NCBI GenBank assembly: GCA_001776935.1
Contig: MFDN01000001.1
Span: forward strand, 293,449 to 357,448
Source: Candidatus Daviesbacteria bacterium RIFCSPLOWO2_01_FULL_39_23
Lineage (GTDB): Bacteria > Patescibacteriota > Microgenomatia > Daviesbacterales > UBA10151
Direction: 5' to 3'
Length of the DNA: 64,000 nucleotides
Part shown: positions 2,375 through 30,175 of the stretch, in pieces
Numbering within the stretch: position 1 is the first letter of the stretch
Layout of the letters: every line of letters begins with the position of its first letter
The notes under the pieces: generated by a model
Seen by the model: the letters and a program-made list of their open reading frames with translations, nothing else
What the model was told of the DNA's origin: nothing
Databases searched by the model: none
Translations under genes and position numbers: made by a program

Positions 2375-2403
2375 TTGACAGACACCCCCTGGGGGTATAA
2401 CAT
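2375..2403 (+). promoter_or_regulatory. Sigma70-like promoter (TTGACA ... TATAAC) overlapping a GC-rich inverted repeat ACACCCCCTGGGGGTAT (2382-2398), candidate CsoR operator
   Basis: -35 TTGACA at 2375-2380. A 17-nt near-perfect palindrome sits between the -35 and -10 elements, directly upstream of csoR (ATG 2412). CsoR-family operators are GC-rich pseudo-palindromes of the TACCC..GGGTA type. Confidence 0.45.
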
Positions 2404-2411
2404 TAGCTTAT

Positions 2412-2681
2412 ATGAAAAATGATAAAGATGTCAAGGGTCAGTCCAGGAAAAGGATTAATATTATCAAAGGTCAACTTGATGGTTTGCTTAAAATGATTGA
2501 GGAAGATGAATATTGTATAGATCTGCTCAATCAAAGTCTAGCTATCCAGAATTCCATTAAAAGCCTTGATGCTCTTATATTCGAGAAGCACTTAAAAACA
2601 CATGTTGTGGATCAATTCCAAAACAAACAGGACAAAGCGATTGAAGAACTGCTAAGATTATTTAAGAGAATACATCAATAA
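2412..2681 (+). CDS. csoR: CsoR/RcnR/FrmR-family metal-sensing transcriptional repressor
   Basis: 89 aa, all-helical. Conserved C..H..H ligand pattern ('EYCIDL...EKHLKTHVV'). Lies immediately upstream of the copper ATPase. Confidence 0.75.
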
Positions 2682-2692
2682 ATAAATTATCT

Positions 2693-4930
2693 ATGAAAAT
2701 GTATACCTGTCCAATGCACCCTGAAGTACAGAGTGACAAGCCGGGAAAATGCCCTAAATGTGGGATGACTTTGATTGAGAAGGATGAGCAATCACATCGT
2801 GGAACGGAATCCATGCAACACACCTCTCATACACCTAAAGAAAATACTAATCATGGTCAGGGAGTTCTTTATACCTGTCCCATGGATCCTGACGTTATGC
2901 AGGATGCTCCTGGCAATTGCCCGAAGTGCGGGATGAAACTTGTGCCTATGACTTCAGAACATGAAGGACATGAGGACCATGCTTCAATGGAGCGGGATTT
3001 TAAGAGACGTTTTTTCATTACTCTTCCATTTGTTATTTTGTCCATTTTACTCTCAAGAATGATTCAGATGTGGCTTGGCCTTGATCTTGCTATTCCGGGA
3101 CAGGAGTTACTACTGTTTGCTATTGGAACCTTTATTTTCTTTTTCGGCGGGTTACCTTTTTTCAAAGGCGCTAAAGGTGAATTGTCACGCAGAAACCCGG
3201 GGATGATGACTTTAGTGGCTTTTGCCATAACGATTGGGTATACTTTTTCTGTAGCTGCTACATTTCTTTTTCCCGGAGAATCATTATATTGGGAAATTTC
3301 CACTCTTATTTCTGTCTTTCTACTCGGCCACTGGTTAGAGATGCGGGCTGTCAGAGGCGCAACAGGCGCTTTGGCAGAGCTTGCCAAACTTATCCCCCCC
3401 TCTGCCCATCTTTTGAAAGATGGAAATGTGGTAGATGTTCAAACTAGTGAGCTAAAAATTAGCGACGGAGTTTTAGTAAAACCGGGAGAGAAAATCCCGG
3501 TTGATGGAGTGGTAATTGATGGAGAAAGTTCCGTTAATGAATCAATGGTGACAGGTGAATCAAGGCCCATAAGTAAGAAAAAAGGTGACAAAGTAATTGG
3601 GGGTACGATCAACCAGGATGGGTCTTTGACAATTGAGGTATCTAAAACCGGAGCCGATACGGCCATCTCCCAGATTATGAAGCTGATAAGAGAAGCCCAG
3701 GCCTCAAAACCTAATGTACAGCATTTAGCTGATCAGGCCGCAGCTGTTTTGTTTTATGTAGCGGTGGTTGCCGGAGCATCCTCATTTGCTTATTGGATGT
3801 TTATTTCTCCACAAGGTGCGGTCTTTGCTGCAACAGTTGCCGTAGCTGCTGTTGTTGTCGCCTGTCCTCATGCTTTAGGTCTGGCTATTCCCACAGTTAC
3901 TACTATTACTTCTACTCTAGGCGCTAAAAATGGAATTTTAATAAAAGACATGAAGGGTTTGGAAATTGCCAGAAAAATCAGTTATGTAGTGTTTGATAAG
4001 ACCGGTACTTTGACCAAAGGCGAATTTGGGGTAACGGATATCATTCTAAATCCAGATGCAGGTATTAAGGATCAGGGTGAATTATTGAGATTGGCTTCAT
4101 CAGTGGAGGTTCAATCACAGCATTCTATAGCCCAAGGAATTGTTAATGATGCTAAAAACAAAAAACTGGAGATTCCCAGTGTCAAAGAATTTAAATCCTT
4201 CCCGGGTAAAGGAGCAGTTGGAAGCGTTGAAGGTAAAAAGGTTGCTGCTGGTAATAAAACTTTGATGGAAGAATTGAAAGTAGAGATAGATAATTTGAAG
4301 ATGGAACAAAAGGCTAATACGCCGGTTTACATTGCTATAAATAATAAATTAGCAGGGATCATTCTCCTTGCTGACATCATCAGAGAAGAATCCAAAGAGG
4401 CTGTTAAAAGGCTTCACGATATGGGAATAAAAACTGCCATGCTCACAGGAGATACCCAGGATGTTGCCAATGAGGTAGGTAAACAGCTTGATATGGATAC
4501 TGTCTTTGCCCAGGTTCTACCAGAAGATAAGGTAAATAAGATAAAAGAGCTGCAGGAAAAAGGCAATGTGGTGGCGATGGTGGGAGATGGAGTTAATGAC
4601 GCACCATCTTTAACCCAATCACATGTCGGTATTGCCATCGGTGCAGGTACAGATGTGGCAGTTGAATCGGCAGGTATAGTGCTGATGAAAAACGATCCCA
4701 TGGATGTAGTCAAAGCAATCTCCTTAAGCCGTAAAACTAATACTAAAATGGTTCAAAACCTTATTTGGGCAACCGGATACAATATCTTTGCTATCCCAAC
4801 TGCTGCAGGAGTACTATATCCTGCATTTGGTATCGTTCTTAGGCCTGAATGGGCAGCTTTACTTATGAGCGCATCCTCGATTATTGTTGTCTTTAATGCC
4901 TTGCTTTTAAGAAGAGCAAAACTTGATTAA
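2693..4930 (+). CDS. copB: Copper-translocating P1B-type ATPase (CPH-type, CopB-like) with two N-terminal CxxC..CPKCGM metal-binding repeats
   Basis: Shows DKTGTLT phosphorylation motif, [12 protein letters not shown] and transmembrane 'CPH' ('[13 protein letters not shown]'). Has duplicated 'YTCPM.P.V....PG.CPKCGM' N-terminal heavy-metal-binding domains. Confidence 0.9.
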
Positions 4931-4951
4931 ACTACGAAAGGAGGTAAAAGT

Positions 4952-5167
4952 ATGTTTGGATTATTTAGTAAAGTTACAGACCCAGTTTGTAGAATGAAAG
5001 TAGATAAAAACAAAGCTAAATATTCTTCAGAACATAAAGGCGAGAAGTACTATCTTTGTTCTGAAAATTGTAAGAAAAGTTTTGATGAAGAACCAGGAAA
5101 ATATGCCCAGCAAGAAAACATTCCCACAAAGAACTGCTGCCAGCAAAACACTAAATCCTGCTGTTAA
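4952..5167 (+). CDS. YHS/TRASH-domain small metal-binding protein
   Basis: 'DPVCRMKVDKNKAKY...GEKYYLCSENCKKSFDEEPGKY' matches the YHS motif. Strong RBS 'aaggaggt' upstream. Confidence 0.7.
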   Translation: MFGLFSKVTDPVCRMKVDKNKAKYSSEHKGEKYYLCSENCKKSFDEEPGKYAQQENIPTKNCCQQNTKSCC

Positions 5168-6573
5168 ACACAACAACTCAATTTGGAGATATCTTTAGTA
5201 AAAGATAACGCAACTATCTTTAGAGCCTCAGAAAGGGTTGGAAACATCGGCAAAGAGGAAACTACATCGTCAACAGTATTTTTATTTTTAACTAACCACA
5301 TAGCTTGAGCAACTAGGTCACCTGCATTAGGAGACAGAATATGCACCCCAAGAATTACTTTTGTCTCAGGATGAATAATCATTTTAATTAACCCTTCTGT
5401 TCTGCCAATGATATGAGCTTTGGGAACATCGGCAAATGAAACAGTACGGCAAAGACAACTTCCTATTTGTTTTATCTCTTGTTCCTCAGTTAAACCGACT
5501 CCGGCAAGCTGCGGGTCAGTAAAGATAGTCCAAGGTACAGAATGATAATCAATACTATTTTGTGCATTCTTTAGGGCATTTTCTGCTGCTAATGTACCTT
5601 CCCTGCCAGCAGTTGGTTCTTGCCTAATTAGTAAATTTGTTACATCACCTACTGCAAAAATGTTGGCTTGAGATGATTGAAAACCGGGACTTACCTTTAT
5701 AGCTTGTTTCTCATCCACCTCAACATCTGCTTTATCAAGAGCTAATCTTTCGGTATTGGGAGTTTTACCTGTTGCGAGTAATATTTCATCCGCTGATACC
5801 TCTTCTTGTTTATCGTCAACTATGTAAGTAAGTATCTTTTTATCTCCTTCTCTACGGGCAGACTGCACTTGTACACCAGTTCTAATAATTATTCCTTCAT
5901 TGGTAAGAATTTCTGTTAATTTATCAGTTAGTTCTCTTTCTGCCGGAGGGAAAATAGAATCACTTCTTTGTAGAATTGTTACTTTAGTGCCGAATCTTGA
6001 ATACATTTGTGCAAACTCTAAACCTAATGGTCCTGCACCAACTACAATCAGTTCCTTAGGCTGTTTTTTAATTTGCAATGCTTCAATATGAGTTAAATAT
6101 CCTACTTTTTTAATACCATCTATTGGTGGTACAGTTGCAGTAGAACCTGCAGCAATAATAAATTTTTTGGCTTGAAATTTTTGTCCGTCGACTTCTATCT
6201 CGTTAGGGGAAACAAAGGCAGCTTTACCTTCTATATGAGCAATATTTTCTAAACCATTTAAGACTTTCTCGTATTTTTCAGTTCTTAGTTTGGCTACTAA
6301 ATCAAGCTCATGCTGAACAACTTGTGAAAAATCAAAATCTTTAACTTCGATATTAACTCCCGGAATACTGTGGTTCTTGGCAAGATGCATTACCTCACCT
6401 GCCCAAAGAAGTGTTTTTGAGGGAACACAACCAACATTCACACAAGTGCCACCCAAAGGCAACCCTTTATTTACCATCAATGTTTTTGCGCCCAGTTCGT
6501 TGGCTTTAATAGCAGCAGCAAATGCTCCTGCTCCACCACCGACAATAATTAAATCAAATACCTGCATACTCAT
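5164..6573 (-). CDS. merA: Class I pyridine nucleotide-disulfide oxidoreductase, mercuric reductase (MerA)-like core
   Basis: FAD motif 'IVGGGAGAFAAA'. Redox-active 'GGTCVNVGCVPSK'. C-terminal vicinal cysteines '...KLSCCV', typical of MerA rather than Lpd. No NmerA (HMA) domain. Confidence 0.65.
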   Translation of the reverse strand: MSMQVFDLIIVGGGAGAFAAAIKANELGAKTLMVNKGLPLGGTCVNVGCVPSKTLLWAGEVMHLAKNHSIPGVNIEVKDFDFSQVVQHELDLVAKLRTEKYEKVLNGLENIAHIEGKAAFVSPNEIEVDGQKFQAKKFIIAAGSTATVPPIDGIKKVGYLTHIEALQIKKQPKELIVVGAGPLGLEFAQMYSRFGTKVTILQRSDSIFPPAERELTDKLTEILTNEGIIIRTGVQVQSARREGDKKILTYIVDDKQEEVSADEILLATGKTPNTERLALDKADVEVDEKQAIKVSPGFQSSQANIFAVGDVTNLLIRQEPTAGREGTLAAENALKNAQNSIDYHSVPWTIFTDPQLAGVGLTEEQEIKQIGSCLCRTVSFADVPKAHIIGRTEGLIKMIIHPETKVILGVHILSPNAGDLVAQAMWLVKNKNTVDDVVSSLPMFPTLSEALKIVALSFTKDISKLSCCV

Positions 6574-6602
6574 ATAAGTATAAAACAGAAATTAACAAAA
6601 GT

Positions 6603-6821
6603 TTAGCAATTTGCTTCTGCATATTGATAAGGGTTCTTATCAAACTCGGCTTTACAATTTTCAGAGCAGAAACCATATTCTTTGCCCTCGTAAGTGCTTT
6701 TATATTTTGTCTTTTCCAAATTAACCTTCATCCCACAAATTGGGTCTTTAACTTCATTTATTTCTTCATCAACCTTTTTGGCAATATTTTTTACAATCTT
6801 AGGTATCTTCAAAGGTTTCAC
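6603..6821 (-). CDS. YHS/TRASH-domain small metal-binding protein
   Basis: 'DPICGMKVNLEKTKYKSTYEGKEYGFCSENCKAEFDKNP'. Confidence 0.7.
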   Translation of the reverse strand: MKPLKIPKIVKNIAKKVDEEINEVKDPICGMKVNLEKTKYKSTYEGKEYGFCSENCKAEFDKNPYQYAEANC

Positions 6822-6833
6822 CTCCTCTATGAA

Positions 6834-7508
6834 CTATAATTTATCTATCTCTGTCGATAGCTCGTTATTTCTTACAGCCATAGTAACATCATCCCTGACA
6901 AACTTTATAATCCCTTCCTTATTGATTATTACATAAGTATGTCCAGGGAATTGGCCTTTATGCATTGATGAAGGAAGAGTTAAAACTCCATATTTTTGGG
7001 AAATCTGCCTGTTGCTGTCAAAAAGTACAGTTGCCCCCGCAAGCTCGGGCATTTTATCTATAGCTTGTTTCCAATTATTTTTTGGATCAGCTGTAATATT
7101 GAAAATAACTGCCTTTTTAGCCAGTTCTGTATCCTTACCAAAAGCTGCGATTTGGTTCCAGCAAGCCGGATAGCACATTAACCCTTCATTAAAAAAGAGA
7201 ATGACATTTTTGCCCTTTAATTCACTCAAGATGATCTTTTTCCCACTATAGTCTTCTAGAGTAAAGTCGGGAGCAATCTTGCCAAGTAAACTATTAAAAA
7301 TAGTAGCATCAGCGGGAGTCCCTCCTCCGTGATGACTGGCCATAGAGTTAGCTTGTGCATTCTGGTTTGTTTGAGTAGTTGGTTGGTTGGCAGAAACCTC
7401 ATCTCCCTTAGTATTTATATTTATCTGGATATTAAAATTACTAACAAGTAAGATTAAAGCTAATACTACCCCTGTTCCTAAAATTGCAATAAGTCCATTT
7501 TTGTTCAT
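6834..7508 (-). CDS. Membrane-anchored thioredoxin-fold protein (redoxin/SCO-like, CxxxC)
   Basis: N-terminal TM segment, Q/T-rich linker, then 'LKGKNVILFFNEGLMCYPACWNQIAAF' (CxxxC in a thioredoxin-like context). Paralog of 8383-8994. Confidence 0.55.
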   Translation of the reverse strand: MNKNGLIAILGTGVVLALILLVSNFNIQININTKGDEVSANQPTTQTNQNAQANSMASHHGGGTPADATIFNSLLGKIAPDFTLEDYSGKKIILSELKGKNVILFFNEGLMCYPACWNQIAAFGKDTELAKKAVIFNITADPKNNWKQAIDKMPELAGATVLFDSNRQISQKYGVLTLPSSMHKGQFPGHTYVIINKEGIIKFVRDDVTMAVRNNELSTEIDKL

Positions 7509-7512
7509 AGTT

Positions 7513-8379
7513 TCACCTCCTTTTCTTCAAAGAGATAAATTGTTTAACAGCAAGATAAACAATAGATAAGGCAATGCCAACGAAAATAACTGCCCAACCT
7601 ATTTCGGGAATAATCTGAGTAAACTGGCTGATAGATTTTATGAATTTTGTCATATAGATATTTAGTGCCACCTGATACGAATTATGGGAAGTGAGTTGGC
7701 TGGTTCTTGCGAGATAGATGATAACAACTCCTAAAATCAGAAACATTAACCCTGAGAAAAGATTAGCAAAGGTAAGACTAATCTTTTGACCCAACACGGT
7801 ATAAGAGATGCTTTTCCTGAAAGCAAAAAACTTCTTGGTAAAGTCAACTTTGTCCAAGAAAAGGGCAATGAGGAAGAGAGGAAGAACCATTCCCAGCACA
7901 TAAGCCAGAGTATAAACTCCTCCCAAGAAAACTGAACCAGGAAGCATTGATAAGGTCAGTACTCCTGCCAGCACCGGAGCGCAACAAGTAGTAGCAATGG
8001 CAGAAAATATACCCAGGACGTACACCGATATAAAATCCTGCCTCTTTAACTCCGGATGAACACTAAAAGGTAGCGAAAATTGTTGTCCTAAAAGTAAAGT
8101 CATACCCAGGAAGAGCAAGAAAACTCCACCTACAAGAAAGATTACGTCATGATACTGACTGAAAATTTGAGTGAGCAACGATACGCCAAGACCAATTGGA
8201 AGAAAAATAGTTAAGATACCCAGGAAATAAACAAAGGTCATCAAAAATACTGTGGCTTTTTGTTTAAAGATGGAAGCAAAATAGCTTGGCAAAAGCACAG
8301 TGATACAACAGGGTGCAAAGAGCGCGGCAATCCCTGCCACAAATGAAGCTATAAATGATGCACTAACTAAAAGATCCAT
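7513..8379 (-). CDS. ccdA: CcdA/DsbD-family transmembrane thiol-disulfide electron transporter (cytochrome c biogenesis protein CcdA-like)
   Basis: Multi-TM protein with 'FAPCC' and 'TTCCAPV' transmembrane cysteine motifs typical of CcdA/DsbD beta-domain. Confidence 0.7.
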   Translation of the reverse strand: MDLLVSASFIASFVAGIAALFAPCCITVLLPSYFASIFKQKATVFLMTFVYFLGILTIFLPIGLGVSLLTQIFSQYHDVIFLVGGVFLLFLGMTLLLGQQFSLPFSVHPELKRQDFISVYVLGIFSAIATTCCAPVLAGVLTLSMLPGSVFLGGVYTLAYVLGMVLPLFLIALFLDKVDFTKKFFAFRKSISYTVLGQKISLTFANLFSGLMFLILGVVIIYLARTSQLTSHNSYQVALNIYMTKFIKSISQFTQIIPEIGWAVIFVGIALSIVYLAVKQFISLKKRR

Positions 8380-8382
8380 AAT

Positions 8383-8994
8383 TTAAAGTTTTTCAATCTC
8401 TGCTATTAACTCTTGGTTTCTTGTTCCCATCTGAGGATCGTCTTTAACGAAACGGACAATTCCATCTTTATCAACAATTATATAAGTATGACCAGGGAGC
8501 TGACCTTTATGCATTGAAGAAGGTAGGGTGAGCACGTTATACAAGATAGAAGTCTTTTTGTCAGTATCTAATAGAACAGTTGATTGAGCTAATTCCGGCA
8601 TCTTGTCAATTGCTCCTTTCCAGTCATCTTTTTTGTCATTAACAATTGATAGTACAACAGTATTTTTGTCAGTAAAATCTTTAGCTTGTCCAAAGGCAGC
8701 AATCTGATTCCAGCAGGCCGGATAGCATACTAAGCCTTCATTGAAAAAGAGAATGACATTTTTACCTTTAAGACTGCTCAGAGTAATTTTATCGCCGGTG
8801 TAACTCTCCAGGGTAAAATCAGGAGCAGGTTTACCAATTAAATCATTAAGTGGAGTACTTGCATTTTGATTAGTAGAAGAACCTTGATTACTGCTGCCGC
8901 TTAGTAAAAAGACCCCACCAACAAGTATGGCAACTGTGACTAACACACCAATCATAATAATTATCTTATCTTTACCCATATTTTTTAGTGGCAA
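8383..8994 (-). CDS. Membrane-anchored thioredoxin-fold protein (redoxin/SCO-like, CxxxC), paralog of 6834-7508
   Basis: 'LKGKNVILFFNEGLVCYPACWNQIAAF' is almost identical to the motif in 6834-7508. Confidence 0.55.
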   Translation of the reverse strand: MPLKNMGKDKIIIMIGVLVTVAILVGGVFLLSGSSNQGSSTNQNASTPLNDLIGKPAPDFTLESYTGDKITLSSLKGKNVILFFNEGLVCYPACWNQIAAFGQAKDFTDKNTVVLSIVNDKKDDWKGAIDKMPELAQSTVLLDTDKKTSILYNVLTLPSSMHKGQLPGHTYIIVDKDGIVRFVKDDPQMGTRNQELIAEIEKL

Positions 8995-9212
8995 GACTTA
9001 CCATCTTGCTTAGTATTATCCTTTCCTTCCTGATTATGATCCCCATGGCCTTTCATCATGAATATATGCATCAAAGGGCAGGCCAGAAAAATACCAAAGT
9101 AGAGCAAGCTTCCAAAAGGGACTTTAAAAATTGTGACAGCTATAATTGTCCCCGCAAGAACTACTAAACAACCTAGCAACAATTTACCCTTAGTAAGTTT
9201 CAAAGATCCCAT
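8985..9212 (-). CDS. Small membrane protein with His-rich tail (DUF2933-like)
   Basis: Two predicted TM helices then 'MKGHGDHNQEGKD...KSCH'. This family is frequent in copper-resistance loci. Confidence 0.35.
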   Translation of the reverse strand: MGSLKLTKGKLLLGCLVVLAGTIIAVTIFKVPFGSLLYFGIFLACPLMHIFMMKGHGDHNQEGKDNTKQDGKSCH

Positions 9213-9679
9213 TTAAAGCTCCTTTCAACAACTCCGCCTACATTTTTAATTTTTAACTCCAGCGACCTAGGTTTTGGTGAAATTGGATTAAATTTCAGAA
9301 CACCATTACGATGATGACCACCGGGGGGCGAGCCGTCCCAAGAGGTAGGTTTATATGCCTTTCCTTGATCATCCAAAAGTTCAGAAACAGCGACCAAGTC
9401 TTCACTAAGCTCTTCTGAATGAGTATTTAAGGTGATATCAAAATCCCAACTGGAAGAACCACTTTCTAAACTGCGTGGAGTGACGGCAACAGTAACAGGC
9501 CCCTCACTACTCTCTTTTGTTTTTTGGTTGCTATTACTATTTGTGTTTTGGGTTGGGTTAGCTGTATTAGTAGATATGCTTGGATTTTTTGGGCCTATGT
9601 TTATAGAAAAATTATCCTTAAGATTAACCACAAAAATTACAAGTAATATAACAATAAAGATAATAGTTAAGTTTTTCAT
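9200..9679 (-). CDS. Secreted hypothetical protein
   Basis: Signal/anchor sequence, N/T/Q-rich linker, ~100-aa C-terminal domain. No recognisable motif. Confidence 0.4.
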   Translation of the reverse strand: MKNLTIIFIVILLVIFVVNLKDNFSINIGPKNPSISTNTANPTQNTNSNSNQKTKESSEGPVTVAVTPRSLESGSSSWDFDITLNTHSEELSEDLVAVSELLDDQGKAYKPTSWDGSPPGGHHRNGVLKFNPISPKPRSLELKIKNVGGVVERSFKWDL

Positions 9680-10173
9680 TGTTGAGAAAGTTTTAATACC
9701 TTACTTCCTATGTAAAATATCCCTAAAAGATTAAAAAATAAGCCAATCCAAAAAAATTGAACCTGATATTGACCAATAAAAGTAATTATCCCCGTTACGC
9801 CAAGAATCGGTAATATATTAGTTAAATAATGAGCACAACAGGAAATCATGGTAGCGGTGGAAGTGGTCCCTGTTGTAGCTAATACCTGTCCGGTAGCCTG
9901 TTGTTTAATAGCACCCTTAAGATAGCTGTAAAGGGTAACTTGAACTCCAAAACCTAAAGCAAGACTTATAACGTAATACCAAAATTGGGCGAATTGATCC
10001 CAGGCAAACTTCCACCCAGAAATAAGCGTAATAATCAAAAAATATACAGATAAAAGAATAGAAAAGGCTAACAATCCCTTTAGCAAGGATTTCTTCAAAA
10101 TATCCACATTTACAGTTAAATTATTCATCTTGATTAAGTCTAGCATAAAAGATACTACAATGTGTAGTACCAT
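9676..10173 (-). CDS. Integral membrane protein, hypothetical
   Basis: Four or more hydrophobic helices. Stop/start overlaps with neighbours suggest an operon. Confidence 0.4.
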   Translation of the reverse strand: MVLHIVVSFMLDLIKMNNLTVNVDILKKSLLKGLLAFSILLSVYFLIITLISGWKFAWDQFAQFWYYVISLALGFGVQVTLYSYLKGAIKQQATGQVLATTGTTSTATMISCCAHYLTNILPILGVTGIITFIGQYQVQFFWIGLFFNLLGIFYIGSKVLKLSQQ

Positions 10174-10184
10174 TTAAATGGTTA

Positions 10185-10448
10185 CTATCTATGTCCTTTC
10201 TTGAAAATAAGCAGCATTTCTTGAAACTGCTGATCTTTATTTTCACCACCTAATATTTTCTTGACGCATCTTTTTAAATGACCCGACAGAATCTCCTCGT
10301 CAGACATCCTGAGATATTTTTGGACTACCTGGGATTCGTGAATAATATCAAGGTAGTATCTTCTCTGTTCGACCATCTTTAAGACTTTGCGCAGGTGCTG
10401 CGCGGCAGTTTTTAATAGTTTTAGTGCTTTTCTCTCGTTATTACTCAT
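10185..10448 (-). CDS. Second CsoR/RcnR/FrmR-family metalloregulator
   Basis: 87 aa. 'LKLLKTAAQHLRKVLKMVEQRRYYLDIIHESQVVQKY...GHLKRCV' has the helical signature and an H..H..C ligand pattern. Confidence 0.6.
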   Translation of the reverse strand: MSNNERKALKLLKTAAQHLRKVLKMVEQRRYYLDIIHESQVVQKYLRMSDEEILSGHLKRCVKKILGGENKDQQFQEMLLIFKKGHR

Positions 10449-10459
10449 GTTCTTTTTTT

Positions 10460-11110
10460 CTAACGTTTTCCATAAGCTAATATTAATTTAAACGATTTGG
10501 CTGACGGTAAAAAGGCAGGTGTATTTTTAAGGTAATGTTGATACTCTGGGTGTTTTAGCAAAACTTCTCTTTCTTCCTTTCGGGACAGCCTGATATACAT
10601 AAAAGTTAAAACTGGTGCCATAATCAAAGTTGGAAGTGTTGGCCATTGCATTAAGAACCCTAAAATAATCACTACAAAACCAACGTATTGCGGATGCCTG
10701 ATGTATTTATAAGGACCGGTTCTGGCAATCGTCTGTCTCCTCGTGGCTTGATAAAGGATCTTCCAAGAAGCACTGATTAAGATTAATCCCCCGATAATTA
10801 ATATATAGCTTAAAATATGTAAAATACTAAAATGTGGATCTCCTGTATTTCCCAATAAATCTTCCCATAAATGACCGGAATTATGAGAGAAGTTAATTTG
10901 TGGAAACCTATTTCCTAACCAGGAAGAGAGTAGGTATATGGTTAAGGGAAAACCATACATTTCAGTAAAAAGGGCAATGATAAAGGCAGAGAAAGCCCCG
11001 AATGACCGCCAGTCAACCCCTGTCCTAGGTTTGAAGGACTGATAAGCAAATACAAGAAAAACCACGCTTAATGTTATTGCAACAAACCAATTTCCATATG
11101 CGTACTCCAT
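10460..11110 (-). CDS. Isoprenylcysteine carboxyl methyltransferase (ICMT/PEMT)-family membrane methyltransferase
   Basis: Multi-TM protein with C-terminal 'GPYKYIRHPQYVGFVVIILGF' (RHPxY motif). Confidence 0.6.
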   Translation of the reverse strand: MEYAYGNWFVAITLSVVFLVFAYQSFKPRTGVDWRSFGAFSAFIIALFTEMYGFPLTIYLLSSWLGNRFPQINFSHNSGHLWEDLLGNTGDPHFSILHILSYILIIGGLILISASWKILYQATRRQTIARTGPYKYIRHPQYVGFVVIILGFLMQWPTLPTLIMAPVLTFMYIRLSRKEEREVLLKHPEYQHYLKNTPAFLPSAKSFKLILAYGKR

Positions 11111-11177
11111 AATGATTTTCCCGACTTTAATTATATGAAACGTTCATGAAGGTTTAATGAAGATTTTAGGGATTAAA

Positions 11178-11203
11178 AAACACCCTCAGTTGAGGGTGTT
11201 TTC
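11178..11203 (-). terminator. Rho-independent terminator hairpin (stem CACCCTCA/TGAGGGTG, flanked by A- and T-tracts; could act bidirectionally)
   Basis: 8-bp perfect stem with 2-nt loop. On the minus strand it is followed by TTTTTTAA. Lies downstream of the HK/RR operon. Confidence 0.6.
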
Positions 11204-11498
11204 ATCTACTAATACAGATTAGTTAAGTAGGACTGCGAATTGGGCTTTGGCAACAACTCGTAAGCATCACCTCCTTAAAAATTAGGTGCTTTAAGGGTAG
11301 GGCCGCGGAGTCTAGGACTTTAAGAATTCATAAACCTTTTAGTAGGTATTCCACTTCCCCTGACTTCCCAGCAAGGGTTCTAAATGACCATTCCTACCCC
11401 AAAGCTGACTTTAAGTTAAACTTAACTTAAAGATAGTGCTAATCATACAAAAAGCGCCATGAAACCGTAGTGAAGAGCCTATGAAGATTTATTCATTT

Positions 11499-12911
11499 TT
11501 AAGTAGAAAAAGCTTTTACCAGAGGAAGTGCGATAGTAATTGTAGTTCCTTTCCCAATTTTACTATTAGCTTCAATTGTTCCCCGATGGGCCTTTATAAC
11601 CCCTAAAACGATTGCCAAACCTAAACCTGACCCAAAAACTTTATCGGCTTTAGAACCCCGATAGAACCTTTCAAAAATGTGAGGTAAATCTACCGGAGCT
11701 ATTCCTATTCCGGTATCTTTTACATAAATCATAGCTTTACTACCTTTTTTATGAAGAGATAAAGTTACCTTGCCCGGGGTAGGGGTATATTTGATAGCAT
11801 TATCAATAAGATTAAGCATGGCTCTATAGAGTTTATCCTGTTTACCTAAAATAGTAATATTTTGTTCGACTACACCCTCAACTGTAATGTGTTTGGAAGT
11901 AGCCATTTTTGATGCCACATCCTTTAATTCTTCAATAAGTTCCGAAAGATTTATTTCATCAGGTTTCATTCTGCCAGAATCTGCCTCTGACCAAGCTAAA
12001 TCCAGAATATTTTTGAGTGTGGAAATAACCCTGTTGGTATCAATAAAGGCTTCCTTAAGGACACCTTTGTATTCTTCCTTTGTTCGCTCTTTCGATATTG
12101 CCACTTCAATATCATTATGCAGGGTAGATAGGGGAGTTTTTAGCTCGTGAGCTACATCACCAATAAATTGTCTTTCCCTGTTAAAAGTCAGACGCAGTCT
12201 CTCCAGTAGACTATTAAAGGTTACTGCCAATTCTTCTATTTCATCACCAGTTTGAGGATTTGATACCTGCTCATCCAAATTAAGGTTTTCAGAGTTTATT
12301 CTGCGAAGCTGCGAAGACATAGTACTAATAGGCCGAATCGCCCGATTTGCCAGAAAATACCCACCTCCCACGGTTGGAATTGATAAAACGAGAAAGGTGA
12401 CAACTAGAACTAAAAGCAACGTATTAAGTGATTTTTGAATTACATCAATAGGATGCCCTATCATAACTGCACCGGCAAATTGGTTTTGAATGTTAAGCGG
12501 TACGGTATAGAACCGCATTGCAACCGACCCAACTTGCTCATCACGAAAAAACGGCTTTTGTAACTGTAGAGTTTCCTGGTAGAGACGGGTAAATACCTGA
12601 TCACCGGAGTTTATAGTATACGAGCTGTTTAAGACCTCCCCTTGATTGTTTATTAAGACAACAAACATTCCAGGCAAATCATTGAATTCATTAATAAATG
12701 CTTCTTTTTGCATCGCCTGACGCATATCGGTACTTTGGCGTAACATGACCTCTGCCACCTTATCTCCATGAGAGGTAAGAATCTGATCAGTATGAGTAAA
12801 AAGAACCTGACGGGTAACAAAATAAAAAGCTGCAAACACTAAAATTGTAGCTGCAAATAAAGCGCAGCTATACCAAATAATAAGCTGAAAACGGATTCCT
12901 TTTTTTCTCAT
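11499..12911 (-). CDS. Sensor histidine kinase (two TM segments, HAMP, HisKA/HATPase_c)
   Basis: H-box 'VAHELKTPLSTL', N-box 'NLIDNAIKYT', G-boxes 'DTGIGI', 'GSGLGLAI'. Confidence 0.85.
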   Translation of the reverse strand: MRKKGIRFQLIIWYSCALFAATILVFAAFYFVTRQVLFTHTDQILTSHGDKVAEVMLRQSTDMRQAMQKEAFINEFNDLPGMFVVLINNQGEVLNSSYTINSGDQVFTRLYQETLQLQKPFFRDEQVGSVAMRFYTVPLNIQNQFAGAVMIGHPIDVIQKSLNTLLLVLVVTFLVLSIPTVGGGYFLANRAIRPISTMSSQLRRINSENLNLDEQVSNPQTGDEIEELAVTFNSLLERLRLTFNRERQFIGDVAHELKTPLSTLHNDIEVAISKERTKEEYKGVLKEAFIDTNRVISTLKNILDLAWSEADSGRMKPDEINLSELIEELKDVASKMATSKHITVEGVVEQNITILGKQDKLYRAMLNLIDNAIKYTPTPGKVTLSLHKKGSKAMIYVKDTGIGIAPVDLPHIFERFYRGSKADKVFGSGLGLAIVLGVIKAHRGTIEANSKIGKGTTITIALPLVKAFST

Positions 12912-13609
12912 GCATCGGCGCTGATTTTACCTTTATCAAGCGGCAAGCCTATTTTATATCCTACTCCATGAACAGTATGGATAAGTTTAACTTTGGCTCC
13001 TCGGTCAACCTTTCGTCTGATAGCAGCTATAAAGGCATCAACAATATTACTCATCCCTTCAAAATTATAATCCCAAACATGCTCAATAATCATAGTTCTA
13101 GTCAGTACTTCATCTTTGTGTCTCAATAAGTATTCTAGTATGGCAAATTCCTTGGATGTAAGTGTGATTAAGTTGTCTGAACGCTTTACTATATGTTTCA
13201 GGGGATCAATTTCAAGATCAGCGATTTTTAAAACCAGAGTGGCTTCCTGCTTACTTCTTCTAATAAGTGCTTGAATTCTGGATCTAAGTTCCAAAAAGGA
13301 AAATGGTTTTGTCAGGTAGTCATCTGCACCACCATCCAATCCGGCAATCCTATCTTCGATATTTGACTTTGCCGTCAGCATAATAATTGGGGTTTTAATA
13401 TTTTTACTACGAAGTTCTTTACAAACCGTTACTCCATCAACTTTCGGCAGCATAACATCTAAAACAATCAAATCGTACTCCTCAGTTTCAGCCATATACT
13501 GGCCTTCTTCACCATCATAAGCCACATCAACTGCAAACCCTTCCTCAGCTAGACCCTTTTTAACACTATTAGCCAAACGGTGTTCGTCATCAACAACCAA
13601 AATACGCAT
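12908..13609 (-). CDS. OmpR/PhoB-family response regulator
   Basis: Receiver domain 'MRILVVDDE...DLIVLDVMLP'. C-terminal winged-helix 'VHTVHGVGYK'. 4-nt overlap with the kinase gene. Confidence 0.9.
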   Translation of the reverse strand: MRILVVDDEHRLANSVKKGLAEEGFAVDVAYDGEEGQYMAETEEYDLIVLDVMLPKVDGVTVCKELRSKNIKTPIIMLTAKSNIEDRIAGLDGGADDYLTKPFSFLELRSRIQALIRRSKQEATLVLKIADLEIDPLKHIVKRSDNLITLTSKEFAILEYLLRHKDEVLTRTMIIEHVWDYNFEGMSNIVDAFIAAIRRKVDRGAKVKLIHTVHGVGYKIGLPLDKGKISADA

Positions 13610-13693
13610 AAATCACCTTATAAGTAGCATTCTACAATAAAAAGGTTAAGATATTATGAAGATTCTATTGGTCTTAGTCAAATTGAAGGTGAA

Positions 13694-14050
13694 TTAAGGA
13701 AGCAAAGGCCCGCCCTGGTAATTAGGAATCCACCAGGGAAGAAAGACATAAATCATGAAAGCAATACCAAAAATTATAGAAAAAGCAATGTATAAAATAA
13801 TGCTTAGGGTATGGTCACCAAAAGTTTTATAACCTTTTTCTTTACAACATTTACCATGGTGATGATGCCACCATAAAAATAATCCTCCCAAAAGAAGAAT
13901 GGGAATTAGCAGCGTCTTATTTCTTCCTTCGTTGGTTAGTACTAACAAATACCCTGAGGAGATCAAGAAAAACAGCAATGCACCACAACAAAGTACATGG
14001 AAAAACAAAAAGGGGATGGTTGTTCCGGCAAACTTTTTGATTACATTCAC
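13694..14050 (-). CDS. Small membrane protein with HHHHGKCC motif
   Basis: Three hydrophobic helices. 'WWHHHHGKCCKEKG' loop could be a metal-binding site. Confidence 0.4.
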   Translation of the reverse strand: MNVIKKFAGTTIPFLFFHVLCCGALLFFLISSGYLLVLTNEGRNKTLLIPILLLGGLFLWWHHHHGKCCKEKGYKTFGDHTLSIILYIAFSIIFGIAFMIYVFLPWWIPNYQGGPLLP

Positions 14051-14107
14051 TGGATTAAATTATATGTAAAAAAGATTAAGAATTCATGAATACCATTAAA
14101 CTCCTGC

Positions 14108-14353
14108 TTACCCATGCTCATAGATAAATTCACTTGCATATTTCTCTGGACAGTCTTCAAAACGTTGTAAACAATCTTCTGAGCAAAAATAATACAACTT
14201 TCCTTTGTGATATGATCTATACTCTGTTTCGTAAGGTTGAAGTTCTAATTCGCAAATCGGATCTATAACAAATTCTTCTTCGTCAATGGGCACTTCCAAA
14301 TCATCAGAAACTTGTTGTCCAATTACTTTAGAAAACTTCATTTTAATGCTCAT
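14108..14353 (-). CDS. YHS/TRASH-domain small metal-binding protein
   Basis: 'DPICELELQPYETEYRSYHKGKLYYFCSEDCLQRFEDCPEKY'. Confidence 0.65.
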   Translation of the reverse strand: MSIKMKFSKVIGQQVSDDLEVPIDEEEFVIDPICELELQPYETEYRSYHKGKLYYFCSEDCLQRFEDCPEKYASEFIYEHG

Positions 14354-14415
14354 ATTACTAAAGATTGATGAATATTTAATGAATATTAGGGGGTGGAAGT
14401 AATCTTATATTTCCT

Positions 14416-14943
14416 CTAGCATTGTTCACTGACTCTGCAAATATAATCTGTTAACTGTTGCTTATCCAAAAAGCCGTAAGCAGGAGATTTTTCTATCCCT
14501 TTAGCATCAAAAATAAACGTAGGGACTCCCGAGATTTTATATTTTTGAGCCTCCTCACCACAAGAATCCAGCCCATACCATTCCCCGTAAAAGTGATCTC
14601 CATGCTCAGGTAGTATTTGATCCAAAACTTTATTTTGGGCAACACAATAAGGACAGGTTTCCGATTCAAAGACTTTAAACTTTAAAGGAGCAGCGGGATT
14701 ACCAGCTTTAATATTAGGACAGTTTTTTTCACCTAACTCAATTTTCTTACTAAACTCAGCCGCAACCATCCTCGGAGGTTTATTTGCAGCTTTCTCAATT
14801 TGAGTAATTTCCTGGCTAGTATTTTTAATTCCTAAGTTTAGGTAAACATTAAAACCAATAAACAGTGTTACTAACACCACTAAAAATAAAGGTGTTTTTT
14901 TAAAAATCTGTTGGTCTGTCCAAACAATTTTTGGTAAGCTCAT
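14416..14943 (-). CDS. Membrane-anchored thioredoxin/DsbA-like thiol-disulfide oxidoreductase
   Basis: N-terminal TM segment. 'ETCPYCVAQ' CxxC in a thioredoxin-like context. Confidence 0.55.
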   Translation of the reverse strand: MSLPKIVWTDQQIFKKTPLFLVVLVTLFIGFNVYLNLGIKNTSQEITQIEKAANKPPRMVAAEFSKKIELGEKNCPNIKAGNPAAPLKFKVFESETCPYCVAQNKVLDQILPEHGDHFYGEWYGLDSCGEEAQKYKISGVPTFIFDAKGIEKSPAYGFLDKQQLTDYICRVSEQC

Positions 14944-15617
14944 ATTGAAATTACTTGTAACGCTAAATAAATTAAATAAATTCCGGCCAAAATAATCAAT
15001 ACTCCTGCGCTTTTCTGCAATGTTCCCATATACCTTGTTAAAAACTTATGCATGGCGCTTTTTGACAAAGATGAGATGAGAGAAAATAGGATCATCAGGG
15101 ACGACATAGCTAAAGCATAAACTGCAAAATTAATTACTCCTCCAAACATTCCCTTCTGGGCTAATGATTGAAAAATCACCAACAAAAAAATTGGTAAAGT
15201 ACACCCTATCGCCCCAAAAGCATAAGCTACGCCAAAAAGATAGAACCTTCTTCCGCCATTAGTTCTAGTTTGGATAACAAGAGGCGGTCTGACGGCGAAT
15301 TCATAGCCAAGCAGTGTTGATGACCCCATAAATAAAAGGAGTCCGCCGGTAACCAATTCTATCCAGGGAAAAATTGGAGCAATAAGGCGCCCAAAAAGAG
15401 CCAGAATGATGCCAAAGACAATATAAACACTGATAAGTCCTAAGCTGGCTAAGCTGCCAGCCTTAAGGCCAAAAAGAAGCTGTTGTATTTTATTGTTATC
15501 TCCCGTTTCCTGCTTAACATAGTACCCGACGTACGCCGGAATTAAGGCAATACTACATGGAGCAAAGAAAGCCTGCAGACCTGCCAGAAACGAGAAGGAA
15601 ACTAAAACTAGATCCAT
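14940..15617 (-). CDS. ccdA: CcdA/DsbD-family transmembrane thiol-disulfide transporter
   Basis: 'FFAPCSIALIPAY' and 'FGAIGCTLPIF' TM cysteine motifs. 4-nt overlap with the downstream thioredoxin gene. Confidence 0.7.
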   Translation of the reverse strand: MDLVLVSFSFLAGLQAFFAPCSIALIPAYVGYYVKQETGDNNKIQQLLFGLKAGSLASLGLISVYIVFGIILALFGRLIAPIFPWIELVTGGLLLFMGSSTLLGYEFAVRPPLVIQTRTNGGRRFYLFGVAYAFGAIGCTLPIFLLVIFQSLAQKGMFGGVINFAVYALAMSSLMILFSLISSLSKSAMHKFLTRYMGTLQKSAGVLIILAGIYLIYLALQVISI

Positions 15618-15620: not shown

Positions 15621-16205
15621 CTAGAGTGGTGCTTTTTCAGGACCCCGGTCTTCATTTGTTTCCATGAAAGTTTTGATTCGATCCTCATCAATTGTTTGGA
15701 GCTTAAGTAACCTGCCCCATGAAGTTAAAGCAATTGGAACATCAAGGCTGTCCCTTGGGATCATAATCTTTTTACTAACTGAAACAGATCCAAAAATTTG
15801 TTTTAACCTGTCAATATCTTGCTCAGATAAACCATTTGTCTTTGCTGATTCCGTTCCTTCTGTTACTTGATTATCTGTGCCACTGGATGGTTTGTACCAA
15901 AGTATAACGGCTCCGTGTTCCATGCTGTGTATTAGATTCCCATCCGGGATAGGTTTGTCATAGATACCAGCAGGTTGGGAGTTGGCATAATGGGGACCTG
16001 ATGTTGGCGGATTCGTGCTATATTCTTCTTTTGTACTTTCTGGTACATGATTTGCACCCTGACTGGCAATGGCCTCTCCTATTAAAGGTTGGTTTAATTT
16101 TGCCTGATCCTTGGCGCCTTGGATGTTTAGAAACCAGATGCCTCCACCAAGAATAATAACAGTGGCTATTACAACTCCTATAATAATTTTAGTTTCTGTC
16201 GTCAT
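15621..16205 (-). CDS. Secreted protein, DUF3105-like
   Basis: Signal anchor then a domain with 'HSMEHGAVILWYKP'. Family assignment is from memory and is low confidence. Confidence 0.35.
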   Translation of the reverse strand: MTTETKIIIGVVIATVIILGGGIWFLNIQGAKDQAKLNQPLIGEAIASQGANHVPESTKEEYSTNPPTSGPHYANSQPAGIYDKPIPDGNLIHSMEHGAVILWYKPSSGTDNQVTEGTESAKTNGLSEQDIDRLKQIFGSVSVSKKIMIPRDSLDVPIALTSWGRLLKLQTIDEDRIKTFMETNEDRGPEKAPL

Positions 16206-16212
16206 ATATTTC

Positions 16213-16560
16213 TCATTTTTTTGTAACAGTAATATTTATATTGAAAAGTTTGCTCAAAAAACCGGAAGAATTCATCCTCCACATTAGGAATTGGTTAAAT
16301 AAAAATGCTCCAATAATTACGATTAAAAGGATCACACTCAACTTTTTCATTAAAGCCTGCGAGTCAGTATTTTTTAGGCTTATGGGAAATATGATTTGTG
16401 TGACCGGCGCTTGCTTTGAAATTTTAAGCTTAGATATCTCTTCTTCCGATATGAAAATATTTTGCAAAGAATGGCGAAACAGGAAGTAAAGTATGCCTCC
16501 GATTATCAGGACGCTACCCAGAAATAGAAAAAAATCATTGTAGTCGGTCAAATTAATCAT
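16213..16560 (-). CDS. Small membrane protein, hypothetical
   Basis: Two hydrophobic helices. Overlaps the next gene by 4 nt. Confidence 0.3.
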   Translation of the reverse strand: MINLTDYNDFFLFLGSVLIIGGILYFLFRHSLQNIFISEEEISKLKISKQAPVTQIIFPISLKNTDSQALMKKLSVILLIVIIGAFLFNQFLMWRMNSSGFLSKLFNINITVTKK

Positions 16561-17840: not shown

Positions 17841-17842
17841 AA

Positions 17843-19063: not shown

Positions 19064-19087
19064 AATATTTAGACAGTTTGTGCATCA

Positions 19088-19363
19088 CTAGCATCCTCCA
19101 ACCATGGACTGCGGCACGTCCGCATTGCTTCCTGTGCCAGCTCCGCTGTTTGTAGTAGCAGGAGCAGCTTTTACCGTAGACGTACTGGCTTTAGAGCTGA
19201 TACGTACTAATTGAAATGTTTGGAAAAGAGTGATCACAGCTATAAGTCCAAGCACCACAATTTGTAAGTTAGGTTTTGGGACACGCAATACTACAGTATT
19301 ATTGTTTTCTTGACTCGGAGAATGACGTGTTGCGTTTGTTTCTATCCGTTGATTTTCTGTCAT
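19088..19363 (-). CDS. Small membrane-anchored protein, hypothetical
   Basis: 91 aa with a single TM segment, upstream of the thioredoxin-repeat gene. Confidence 0.3.
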   Translation of the reverse strand: MTENQRIETNATRHSPSQENNNTVVLRVPKPNLQIVVLGLIAVITLFQTFQLVRISSKASTSTVKAAPATTNSGAGTGSNADVPQSMVGGC

Positions 19364-20591: not shown

Positions 20592-20978
20592 TTAACCTTC
20601 GCTTAGTTTTTTTAACAGATCTTGTCGTTTCTTTGGACTGATTTTTTGAATTTCTTTTATAAAATGAGCAAGTACCTCTTCTCCTAGGGTTGAAACTGCT
20701 GATGAAAAGATACCATGAACAGCTTTTGCGACAAATTGTTCTTTAGAAACTTTAGGTTTATACAGGTAGCTTGGCCCACTCATGTGTCTTACCAGGACAC
20801 CCTTATTTACAAGTCTTGCCATGATAGTCATCACAGTTGTATAAGCAATCTGGCGTCTTTTGCTTAAAATTTCAGTCACACTTTTGACTGAAACTGCACC
20901 CTTTTGACCCCAGATAATTTCCATTACCTCGGATTCCAGATCACCTAAAACCTTACCGGTAACACGTTTCTTGTTCAT
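20592..20978 (-). CDS. BlaI/MecI/CopY-family winged-helix transcriptional repressor
   Basis: 'EVMEIIW...AVSVKSVTEIL...YTTVMTIMARLVNKGVLVR' is the penicillinase-repressor fold signature. Confidence 0.8.
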   Translation of the reverse strand: MNKKRVTGKVLGDLESEVMEIIWGQKGAVSVKSVTEILSKRRQIAYTTVMTIMARLVNKGVLVRHMSGPSYLYKPKVSKEQFVAKAVHGIFSSAVSTLGEEVLAHFIKEIQKISPKKRQDLLKKLSEG

Positions 20979-27663: not shown

Positions 27664-27692
27664 ACAAGTTTGTTACTTACGTAATAACAAAT

Positions 27693-27893: not shown

Positions 27894-27904
27894 GAGTAAA
27901 AACT

Positions 27905-28825: not shown

Positions 28826-28864
28826 CCTCCTGTATTTTCAAAAGGAGGGAGGTGAAAAAATATT

Positions 28865-30147: not shown

Positions 30148-30175
30148 AATTTAAACGGAAAGCGGGGTGAAAAAT

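Follow-up and report, generated by a model that had tools for sequence, protein, structure and literature searches.

The proteobacterial suppressor-of-copper-sensitivity (Scs) system is an envelope thiol-redox system with a published link to copper. As in CcdA-ResA/TlpA/Etrx, a DsbD/CcdA-family membrane thiol transporter feeds anchored thioredoxin-fold proteins, and Caulobacter ScsB also reduces a peroxiredoxin-like protein. Mobile, copper-induced islands of Alteromonas and other Gammaproteobacteria (merR-copA-cupredoxin-DUF2933-ICMT) place DUF2933 and an ICMT-family methyltransferase beside copA (PMC8478169). Mercuric reductases (MerA) without NmerA are known from archaeal and Thermus-type mer operons, including Sulfolobus merR-merH-merA, in which merH encodes a TRASH protein; TRASH proteins in mer operons were previously reported from archaea only (PMC3466566). 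Here we describe an island in Candidatus Daviesbacteria bacterium RIFCSPLOWO2_01_FULL_39_23, a groundwater bacterium belonging to the Candidate Phyla Radiation (CPR), that brings a CcdA-redoxin envelope module, copper-resistance genes and merA together. The window is the whole stretch of 64,000 nucleotides that was analysed (contig MFDN01000001.1, positions 293,449 to 357,448). The island is a copper-resistance cluster, mostly of ordinary type, to which a genuine mercury reductase is appended.

The gene map was made from an open reading frame (ORF) listing with Pfam/NCBIfam profile scans, and the window was compared with contigs of relatives (L001-L024). Gene identities, motifs, gene order and conservation across genomes were observed directly, and they make the island modular and copper-centred. 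Its centre is an operon of ten minus-strand genes (11110 to 5164, gaps of -13 to +29 nt). In order of transcription these encode an ICMT-family methyltransferase, CsoR2, a 165-aa membrane protein, a 159-aa anchored protein, DUF2933, a redoxin, CcdA, a second redoxin, YHS2 and MerA. On the plus strand csoR1-copB-yhs1 faces this operon convergently, end to end at MerA. An earlier reading made from the letters alone (the sequence-only reading) had proposed both the long minus-strand operon and a composite copper/mercury/thiol-redox cluster; both are borne out, and most components stand where it placed them, though some of its counts run too high. As the best explanation of the whole we favour, with moderate confidence, a copper-centred modular soft-metal island extended to mercury, combining an envelope electron relay, an appended MerA and CopRS-like control.

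The CcdA-family membrane protein (7513-8379, minus strand; PF02683, 35.6 bits against a cut-off of 27.1) carries vicinal cysteines in both repeats ('FAPCCITV' and 'TTCCAPVL') and a C-terminal extension. Aligned with Thermus thermophilus CcdA (5VKV), it keeps both catalytic cysteines, each followed by an extra cysteine ('APCC', 'TCCAP'). A scan of 1.84 billion sequences gave at least 542 representatives at E<=1e-10; of these the best 150 were taken, and both sites could be aligned in 117. Vicinal cysteines in both motifs (CC/CC) are present in 94 of these 117, down to about 28-31% identity, and single-Cys CcdAs appear only lower down. Judged by its motifs, the window protein belongs to a large CC/CC subfamily, with vicinal CC in both active-site motifs, that is new. 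Proteins from the scan include fusions of CC/CC-CcdA to a C-terminal redoxin (P0382) and to a C-terminal YHS domain (P0391), and the CC/CC-CcdA domain also forms the N-terminus of P1B copper ATPases of 967 and 980 aa (P0393, and P0423 with HMBD). We found no published description of these fusion architectures. Their partners place the C-terminus of CcdA in the cytoplasm, beside metal-binding domains.

On either side of ccdA lies a gene for a membrane-anchored redoxin of the AhpC/TSA fold (PF00578, 64-66 bits). The redoxin at 6834-7508 (minus strand) combines CYPAC (CxxxC) with a conserved His (SSMH, PGH) and an N-terminal 'SHHGGG', and the one at 8383-8994 (minus strand) is its CYPAC paralogue. 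A peroxiredoxin function was rejected, since the PxxxT/SxxC motif is missing; where the aligned peroxiredoxin 2ywn has Pro and Thr, the redoxins have Glu and Tyr ('FNEGLVCYPAC'). With Sco/SenC the redoxins share a thioredoxin-like fold, a membrane anchor and a CxxxC with a downstream conserved His before a beta-strand ('GHTYIIVDKDG'). Membership of the Sco family was nevertheless rejected: there is no PF02630 match at E<=10, only the CxxxC and His motifs resemble Sco, the redoxins group with AhpC/TSA and ResA, and their non-CPR homologues have CxxC.

A further CcdA-like membrane protein of the single-Cys type, recognised by its motifs only ('FAPCSIALIP', 'GCTLPIF'), is encoded at 14940-15617 (minus strand; DsbD_2, 18.9 bits against a cut-off of 24.9). 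It is 27% identical to the CC/CC protein and is paired with an anchored CPYC thioredoxin (14416-14943, minus strand). The sequence-only reading had counted three CcdA-family genes, arranged as two redoxin-CcdA pairs and a third CcdA with a DsbA-like partner. Only two such genes are present, 7513-8379 and 14940-15617, and the actual layout is redoxin-CcdA-redoxin plus one CcdA-thioredoxin pair. The 165-aa membrane protein of the operon was considered as the third CcdA and rejected, having no DsbD/CcdA match even at E<=10.

The same module was found in other CPR genomes. Searching from CcdA, it was frequently met without MerA; L020 has it with MerA. Contig L021 carries a CcdA placed by NCBI in a WWE3 genome; between BlaI and YHS2 it keeps the gene order of the window, at 56-84% amino-acid identity, and it has no MerA; a 65%-identical YHS2 orthologue ends the island there. 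In L022, L023 and L024, CcdA and redoxin lie beside csoR-copA, DUF5676, multicopper oxidase, ICMT and DUF2933, likewise without MerA. Since the module so often stands in a copper context without MerA, the conserved unit is copper-linked and MerA is an optional terminal addition.

Related loci were also found by a protein search of plasmids, and the annotated neighbourhoods of seven of them were compared. All seven encode a CC/CC-CcdA, a CxxC redoxin and a small glutaredoxin/thioredoxin-like protein; for the Burkholderia contaminans CcdA only the second CC motif is readable, the annotated start cutting off the first. The recurring set consists of DUF2933 (at some loci), CcdA, a 'peroxiredoxin family/redoxin' protein and the small glutaredoxin/thioredoxin-like protein. 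It occurs in Burkholderia, Paraburkholderia, Streptomyces, Cellulomonas, Cryobacterium, Rubrobacter and Microvirga, with CueR, heavy-metal P-type ATPases, multicopper oxidase, ICMT, DUF3105, DUF305 or a BlaI/M56 pair as neighbours. This DUF2933-CcdA-redoxin-glutaredoxin(-ICMT) module of copper islands, carried by Actinobacteria and Burkholderiales plasmids, is annotated and, as far as we found, uncharacterised; our literature search returned no functional study of the CcdA-redoxin part.

The window module resembles the plasmid module in its CcdA ('APCC' and 'CCAPVLA'), in its anchored redoxin ('F.EG..C..PCW.Q', 'GH[ST]'), in its DUF2933, ICMT, DUF3105 and BlaI/M56 neighbours, and in the adjoining copper ATPase and copper regulator. 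It differs in several respects. At the aligned position the plasmid redoxins read CxxC, six of them as C(Q/P)PC and that of Cellulomonas as CGSC, whereas CPR redoxins have CYP(A/S)C in place of CQPC; YHS replaces the glutaredoxin-like gene; and the window has two copies of the redoxin. There are two additions so far seen at CPR loci only, a CCAH membrane protein and a His-triad sandwich protein; MerA is appended, and the regulators are CsoR and CopRS-like, as against CueR on plasmids. As far as the compared sequences tell, the use of CxxxC for CxxC in the CPR redoxin and of YHS for glutaredoxin is new. The grouping of DUF2933 and ICMT with a copper P-type ATPase is shared with the Alteromonas island; unlike that island, the window itself contains no cupredoxin (a cupredoxin fusion lies to its left) and has CsoR for MerR/CueR. 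Relative to Scs and CcdA-ResA, the window lacks a ScsB-type N-terminal domain, its CcdA is CC/CC, its redoxins have neither the peroxiredoxin motif nor CxxC, and its host, a CPR bacterium, lacks a classical periplasm.

The last gene of the operon (5164-6573, minus strand) encodes a flavoprotein of 469 aa that scores 518.7 bits with the MerA equivalog TIGR02053 (cut-off 454.45; model positions 1-464 of 465). The lipoamide dehydrogenase (Lpd) model gives 360 bits against a cut-off of 408.8, and the five best solved-structure matches are all MerA. The redox-active CxxxxC (CVNVGC; 'GGTCVNVGCVPSK') and the C-terminal '...KLSCCV' align with the MerA structures 5x1y and 4ywo. At the two Hg-binding tyrosine positions, which we take to correspond to Tn501 Y194/Y535, the 'KY' tyrosine is kept and the second residue is Phe ('MFPT'), as in Metallosphaera MerA 4ywo, where 5x1y has Tyr; 'MFPT' and the terminal 'SCCV' are common to the window and Metallosphaera proteins. 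The FAD-binding site begins at residue 7, so NmerA is absent, as the sequence-only reading had stated. That reading had named a place in the Lpd clade as what would refute it, and this refutation fails, with MerA above its own cut-off and Lpd below its own. On these features the flavoprotein is a bona fide core MerA with predicted Hg(II) reductase activity.

More than 100 proteins are 74-87% identical to the window MerA. Named relatives come from Daviesbacteria, Gottesmanbacteria, Levybacteria, Woesebacteria, Blackburnbacteria and other Patescibacteria, and NCBI calls all of them mercury(II) reductase. The presence of MerA in Daviesbacteria is already published and is not new: Christakis et al. 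2021 reported seven Daviesbacteria MerAs, placed beside those of Thermococci and Archaeoglobi, and inferred transfer from an archaeon (PMC8261052). The neighbourhoods of close relatives are mosaic, some with ArsR and Cys-rich membrane proteins and some followed by BlaI/BlaR1. In L019 the order is CsoR, CC/CC-CcdA, a Cys-rich protein and MerA; in L020 it is the 159-aa protein, DUF2933, redoxin, CcdA, redoxin and MerA, without YHS2. A 78%-identical MerA from Blackburnbacteria (L018) follows an ArsR-type regulator, a MerT::HMA fusion ('SLCCIGPLVL', 'GMWCTSCA') and an MFS protein, a recognisable mer operon. Taking merR or arsR together with merT/merP or merC/F/E beside merA as the canonical arrangement, L018 has it and the window does not. 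The absence of MerR, MerT and MerP noted by the sequence-only reading holds, with no MerR, MerT or HMA Pfam match among the 20 ORFs scanned between 2412 and 16205.

With the NmerA-less mer operons of archaea and Thermus the window shares a core MerA with CxxxxC and a C-terminal CC, the lack of MerT and MerP, and a TRASH-clan protein adjoining merA. Unlike them it has no mer-specific regulator, its MerA tails a copper-type envelope operon, and the adjacency of YHS is not conserved among relatives.

Two side observations concern these relatives. Cys-rich proteins with a 'GCPVCG' membrane segment and/or a 'YRPCC..DCNHG' domain recur (window 16557-17840, minus strand; L017 6465-7937; L019 6273-7247) and stand directly upstream of MerA in other CPR genomes; they may be further mercury- or copper-handling proteins. 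Four contigs labelled 'uncultured Gammaproteobacteria' (L009, L010, L012 and L013) carry MerA 73-81% identical to the window gene, and L009 and L012 also carry island genes (BlaI/BlaR1-like; CsoR-CopA, ICMT, DUF3105). These labels are probably wrong.

Three stand-alone YHS/TRASH proteins are encoded in the island: YHS1 (4952-5167, plus strand; 71 aa, 61 bits), a cytoplasmic protein with a CC...CC tail, and the cytoplasmic YHS2 (6603-6821, minus strand; 72 aa, 69 bits) and YHS3 (14108-14353, minus strand; 81 aa, 54 bits). All three exceed the PF04945 cut-off of 30.3 bits and carry the TRASH motif C-x19-22-C-x3-C. A six-frame scan for this motif returned no fourth in a real gene, against the four that had been counted from the sequence. 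The sequence-only reading had further proposed that YHS proteins substitute for MerP and CopZ. None of the three has a signal peptide or membrane segment, so they cannot replace the periplasmic MerP. The association of YHS with copA and an HMA (CopZ-like) gene about 5 kb outside the window edge also speak against the proposal. A role as a CopZ-like partner stays plausible. Nor does YHS follow MerA. It accompanies csoR-copA (window, L019, L024, L007), MerA relatives in L017, L018, L020, L009 and L011 lack it, and the YHS2 orthologue is kept in L021, which has no MerA. In the window, the relation between YHS2 and MerA is one of adjacency only.

The plus-strand operon is of ordinary copper type. 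A promoter-like site found by sequence scan (TTGACA-17-TAACAT; 2375-2403, plus strand) overlaps a CsoR-type GC-tract palindrome, ACACCCCCTGGGGGTAT (2382-2398), which is perfect and occurs once in the window (0.05 expected by chance). It precedes csoR1 (2412-2681, plus strand; PF02583, 77 bits), encoding a predicted metal-sensing repressor with the C-H-H ligand pattern of Thermus thermophilus CsoR; its best PDB match is 3AAI, aligned at 'YC..HLKxHV'. The next gene (2693-4930, plus strand) encodes a copper-exporting P1B ATPase (TIGR01511, 586 bits against a cut-off of 397) that the CPH motif 'ACPHALG', two N-terminal HMBD domains and His-rich stretches identify as CopB-like. The CsoR and CPH-type copper ATPase recognised from the sequence alone are thus confirmed. 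With yhs1 as third gene, the operon forms a csoR-copA-YHS triad that recurs in L019 and L024. Directly adjoining the csoR promoter is a minus-strand gene (1500-2366) whose product joins an ATP-cone domain and an Mrr-type restriction endonuclease domain in one protein.

We propose a model in which CsoR1 would occupy the palindrome overlapping the promoter until released by copper; the CPH-type ATPase would then export copper, and metal in the cytoplasm would be handled by the HMBD domains of the pump together with the small YHS protein. The first nine genes of the long operon represent the CPR version of the uncharacterised envelope module. Most likely, CcdA would carry reducing equivalents from a small cytoplasmic partner to the surface, where the membrane-anchored thioredoxin-fold proteins would keep surface cysteines reduced or metal-free under copper or mercury stress, much as in Scs or CcdA-ResA. 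MerA, an NmerA-less mercuric reductase of an archaeal-like CPR clade added as last gene in some genomes, would reduce cytoplasmic Hg(II) to volatile Hg(0) with NAD(P)H. The inserted CopRS-like two-component system would probably drive the operon from ICMT to MerA, and neighbouring small genes, via TTCAT repeats. Which way electrons or metal flow, how the genes are regulated and which metals are sensed are predictions. Electron transfer by CcdA from a cytoplasmic thioredoxin to an extracytoplasmic partner is predicted from context, and the ATPase and YHS fusions point elsewhere.

Several observations weigh against this electron relay and its CopRS-like control. All ten CPR redoxins examined have CYP(A/S)C; where CPR loci have a small gene after the redoxin it encodes YHS, in the position of the plasmid glutaredoxin-like gene; and CC/CC-CcdA domains are fused to copper ATPases and to YHS. 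Together, the motif switches and fusions are explained by metal handling no less well than by electron transfer. On the regulatory side, CsoR2 reads Y-H-C, with Tyr for the first Cu(I)-ligand Cys (aligned to 4M1P and 2HH7), and no second CsoR-type operator is available for it, the palindrome occurring once in the window. The best matches of the two-component system are of the heavy-metal (CopRS/CusRS) type and fall below their cut-offs (TIGR01387, 256.3 against 279.2; TIGR01386, 222.9 against 292.55), as does the best match of the BlaI/CopY-family repressor (CopY/TcrY, 68.5 bits against 122). One can instead picture the CC/CC-CcdA as a thiolate-lined Cu(I)/Hg(II) conduit, a CcdA-derived analogue of MerT and not an electron carrier. 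Surface CxxxC redoxins would capture metal in the manner of MerP or Sco, the membrane protein would pass it inward, and cytoplasmic YHS would supply MerA with Hg(II) and the HMBD domains of the ATPase with Cu(I). This would fit the vicinal CC kept in both motifs to about 28-31% identity, where canonical CcdA has a single Cys, and the CcdA fusions to P1B ATPases and YHS. Both CPR partners are of metal type, a redoxin with CxxxC and a conserved His, and YHS in glutaredoxin's place; the copper site of Sco consists of CxxxC and His (PMC3603459). In L019, moreover, CC/CC-CcdA stands in a MerA operon without any redoxin, and actinobacterial CcdA-domain and TrxA-domain proteins have been listed as 'mercury transporter' (PMC12195606). 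Yet in the plasmid homologues a glutaredoxin-like protein, CcdA and a CxxC redoxin still form the triad expected of an electron relay, and the catalytic Cys of canonical CcdA is kept in both repeats. Copper import beside a copper exporter is physiologically implausible, the redoxins have no Sco match, and the module is common without MerA. We consider metal conduction by CcdA unlikely. Its boldest form is equally doubtful: an unrecognised soft-metal transporter or hand-over platform that evolved from an electron carrier, whose CPR partners switched to metal motifs, so that the operon would be a complete relay ending in MerA and replacing MerP, MerT and NmerA.

The sequence-only reading itself saw a dedicated periplasm-directed reductive detoxification pathway, with YHS mini-proteins replacing MerP/CopZ and thioredoxin/CcdA pairs serving MerA. 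YHS2 does lie directly upstream of MerA in the same operon, the region has no MerR, MerT or MerP match, and Sulfolobus MerA is accompanied by TRASH proteins, MerH providing an archaeal precedent for a TRASH protein that serves MerA (PMC3466566). An outward reducing route from CcdA to the anchored redoxins also stays plausible. The CcdA-redoxin module is not mer-specific, however: CPR genomes and the plasmids of cultured bacteria both have it in copper contexts that lack MerA. The YHS proteins carry no export signal and co-occur with copA and not merA, MerA is an optional last gene, and HMA proteins lie just beyond the window. A Gram-negative periplasm is not known from CPR cells. Such a dedicated pathway is improbable. 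Housekeeping redox machinery, with the flavoprotein an Lpd-like disulfide reductase and CcdA/thioredoxin serving cytochrome c maturation or general disulfide metabolism, could be suspected from NCBI/Pfam names such as 'cytochrome c biogenesis protein' and from Lpd being the second-best family. It was rejected on the family scores and the C-terminal CC pair; the setting among metal regulators, a copper ATPase and YHS, and the patchy, mosaic distribution, also contradict it, leaving it only the slightest chance.

The electron relay remains the preferred reading, because a cytoplasmic CxxC protein, CcdA and an anchored CxxC redoxin make up the textbook triad in cultured bacteria, which suggests a family that serves to reduce the envelope and has been co-opted for copper stress. 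What is most useful here is that CC/CC-CcdA plus redoxin is now defined as a widespread, testable unit: plasmids of cultured bacteria, Burkholderia and Streptomyces among them, carry the same core, which opens its function to tests in tractable hosts. If CC/CC-CcdA handled metal, it would represent a new class of copper/mercury transporter and would explain how MerA is fed in organisms without MerT and MerP; if it relays electrons, the module is a widespread counterpart, outside Proteobacteria, of the Scs copper-stress system. CPR organisms are tiny, uncultured and metabolically sparse, yet more than 20 kb here is given to copper/mercury defence of the cell surface.

A two-component system separates the long operon from the rest of the island, with a HAMP histidine kinase at 11499-12911 and an OmpR-type regulator at 12908-13609 (both minus strand). 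Just upstream of the ICMT operon, three TTCAT direct repeats with 11-bp phasing (11135-11161, minus strand) stand beside a -10-like CATATAAT. Similar TTCAT-N6-TTCAT-N6-TTCAT arrays occur at 11459-11485, after the kinase gene, and at 14064-14090 and 14357-14383, upstream of the genes for a 118-aa protein and YHS3. The window holds five matches where 0.6 would be expected; each of them is intergenic, lies within the island and reads on the minus strand. These arrays are candidate operator or regulon sites of the adjacent OmpR-type regulator. A generic promoter/terminator scan showed no enrichment relative to shuffles (44 promoter-like sites, 55.8 expected), and use was therefore made of single sites in good positions only. 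An intrinsic terminator, CACCCTC-aact-GAGGGTG followed by T6 (11175-11198, minus strand), was read from the sequence between the kinase gene region and the ICMT operon.

The same interval contains about 270 untranslated nucleotides (11168-11440, minus strand) between the kinase stop and the ICMT operon, with a TTCAT array and a TATGAT -10-like box before it and the strong intrinsic terminator at its end. This stretch folds better than 200 of 200 shuffles (z = -3.56), its last hairpin being the terminator, and has no Rfam family match; at gathering thresholds Rfam gave no family anywhere in the window, nor did 11050-11560 yield one at E<=1. Inside it, a Shine-Dalgarno-like AAGGAGGTG is followed by a 14-codon ORF, MLTSCCQSPIRSPT (11267-11223).

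The remaining genes of the long operon are all on the minus strand. The ICMT-family membrane methyltransferase is its first gene (10460-11110; PF04140, 32.8 bits against a cut-off of 24); CzcN and NccN are ICMT-like proteins. It is followed by csoR2 (10185-10448; PF02583, 41.5 bits) and by the gene for the 165-aa multi-pass protein (9676-10173), which has an invariant 'MISCCAH(Y/H)L' and no Pfam family and is always paired with the 159-aa protein (9200-9679). The latter is an anchored extracytoplasmic beta-sandwich protein with a His triad, in which H87 and G-H-H-R at 121-124 are invariant in the alignment, and its homologues occur only in CPR-labelled or unlabelled metagenome records. Its AF2 model (pLDDT 83.6) has no significant PDB match, only generic Ig-like ones (best E 4.7e-3, TM below 0.5), and so gives no functional lead; the modelled protein possibly binds metal. 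DUF2933 (8985-9212) is a small membrane protein with 'ACPLMH' and a C-terminal 'KSCH'. Upstream of the regulator gene is the gene for the 118-aa protein (13694-14050, minus strand), which has about three membrane segments, 'HVLCCG' in the first, 'KCC' in a loop and the tail 'HHHHGKCC'; its Cys arrangement is MerT-like, it has no family match, and L024 encodes a 48%-identical orthologue. The second CsoR-family gene, the ICMT-family gene and the His/Cys-tailed small membrane proteins are thus present as the sequence-only reading had it.

Beyond the second CcdA-like gene the island continues on the minus strand (15621-19363), next with DUF3105 (15621-16205), for which we found nothing relevant in the literature in connection with copper. 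It further encodes two membrane proteins, one of 115 aa and a Cys-rich one of 427 aa ('GCPVCG'; 'CSYCCG..CGCAH'), an anchored protein of 406 aa in which a thioredoxin-like CxxC repeat occurs three times, and a protein of 91 aa, and these genes are colinear in L020, L021 and L024. A BlaR1-like M56/M48 membrane protease (19441-20565) and the BlaI/CopY-family repressor (20592-20978), both on the minus strand, stand at the head of the conserved block; in L021, L023, L024 and a Streptomyces plasmid, too, the module begins with a BlaI/BlaR1-like pair.

The 13-kb cluster delimited earlier is real, and its limits are too narrow: the co-directional conserved block reaches about 21719, and the island also extends leftward past the window. 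On contig L001 (15600-21410), left of the window start, it continues with Lycopene_cyc-like, DUF5676 and DsbA-like genes and with genes for a 596-aa HMA-DsbD_2-cupredoxin fusion, a 65-aa HMA (CopZ-like) protein and a 1204-aa HMA P-type ATPase. Proteins identical to those of the window occur on dozens of contigs from Daviesbacteria genomes of Rifle-type groundwater (GW2011_GWC2_40_12, RIFCSPHIGHO2 bins, GCA_003516415.1). As to mobile-element hallmarks, there is no tRNA within the window and the base composition of the island is not distinct. Only the mosaic, high-identity sharing across CPR lineages therefore speaks for transfer, and on that basis the island appears to be horizontally shared among CPR.

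Elsewhere in the window, a type I restriction-modification system is encoded on the minus strand (51193-58220; HsdR 51193-54129, HsdM 56538-58220), and the N-terminal MerR-type helix-turn-helix of HsdM is the only MerR-family domain among the scanned ORFs, unrelated to mercury. A strongly AT-skewed plus-strand block at about 27000-45100 has genes for a major capsid protein of the SU10 type (28865-30034), a protein containing an amidase (31921-33606) and a polyvalent protein of 1900 aa with an LPD38 domain (38360-44062), and is probably a prophage in this CPR genome.

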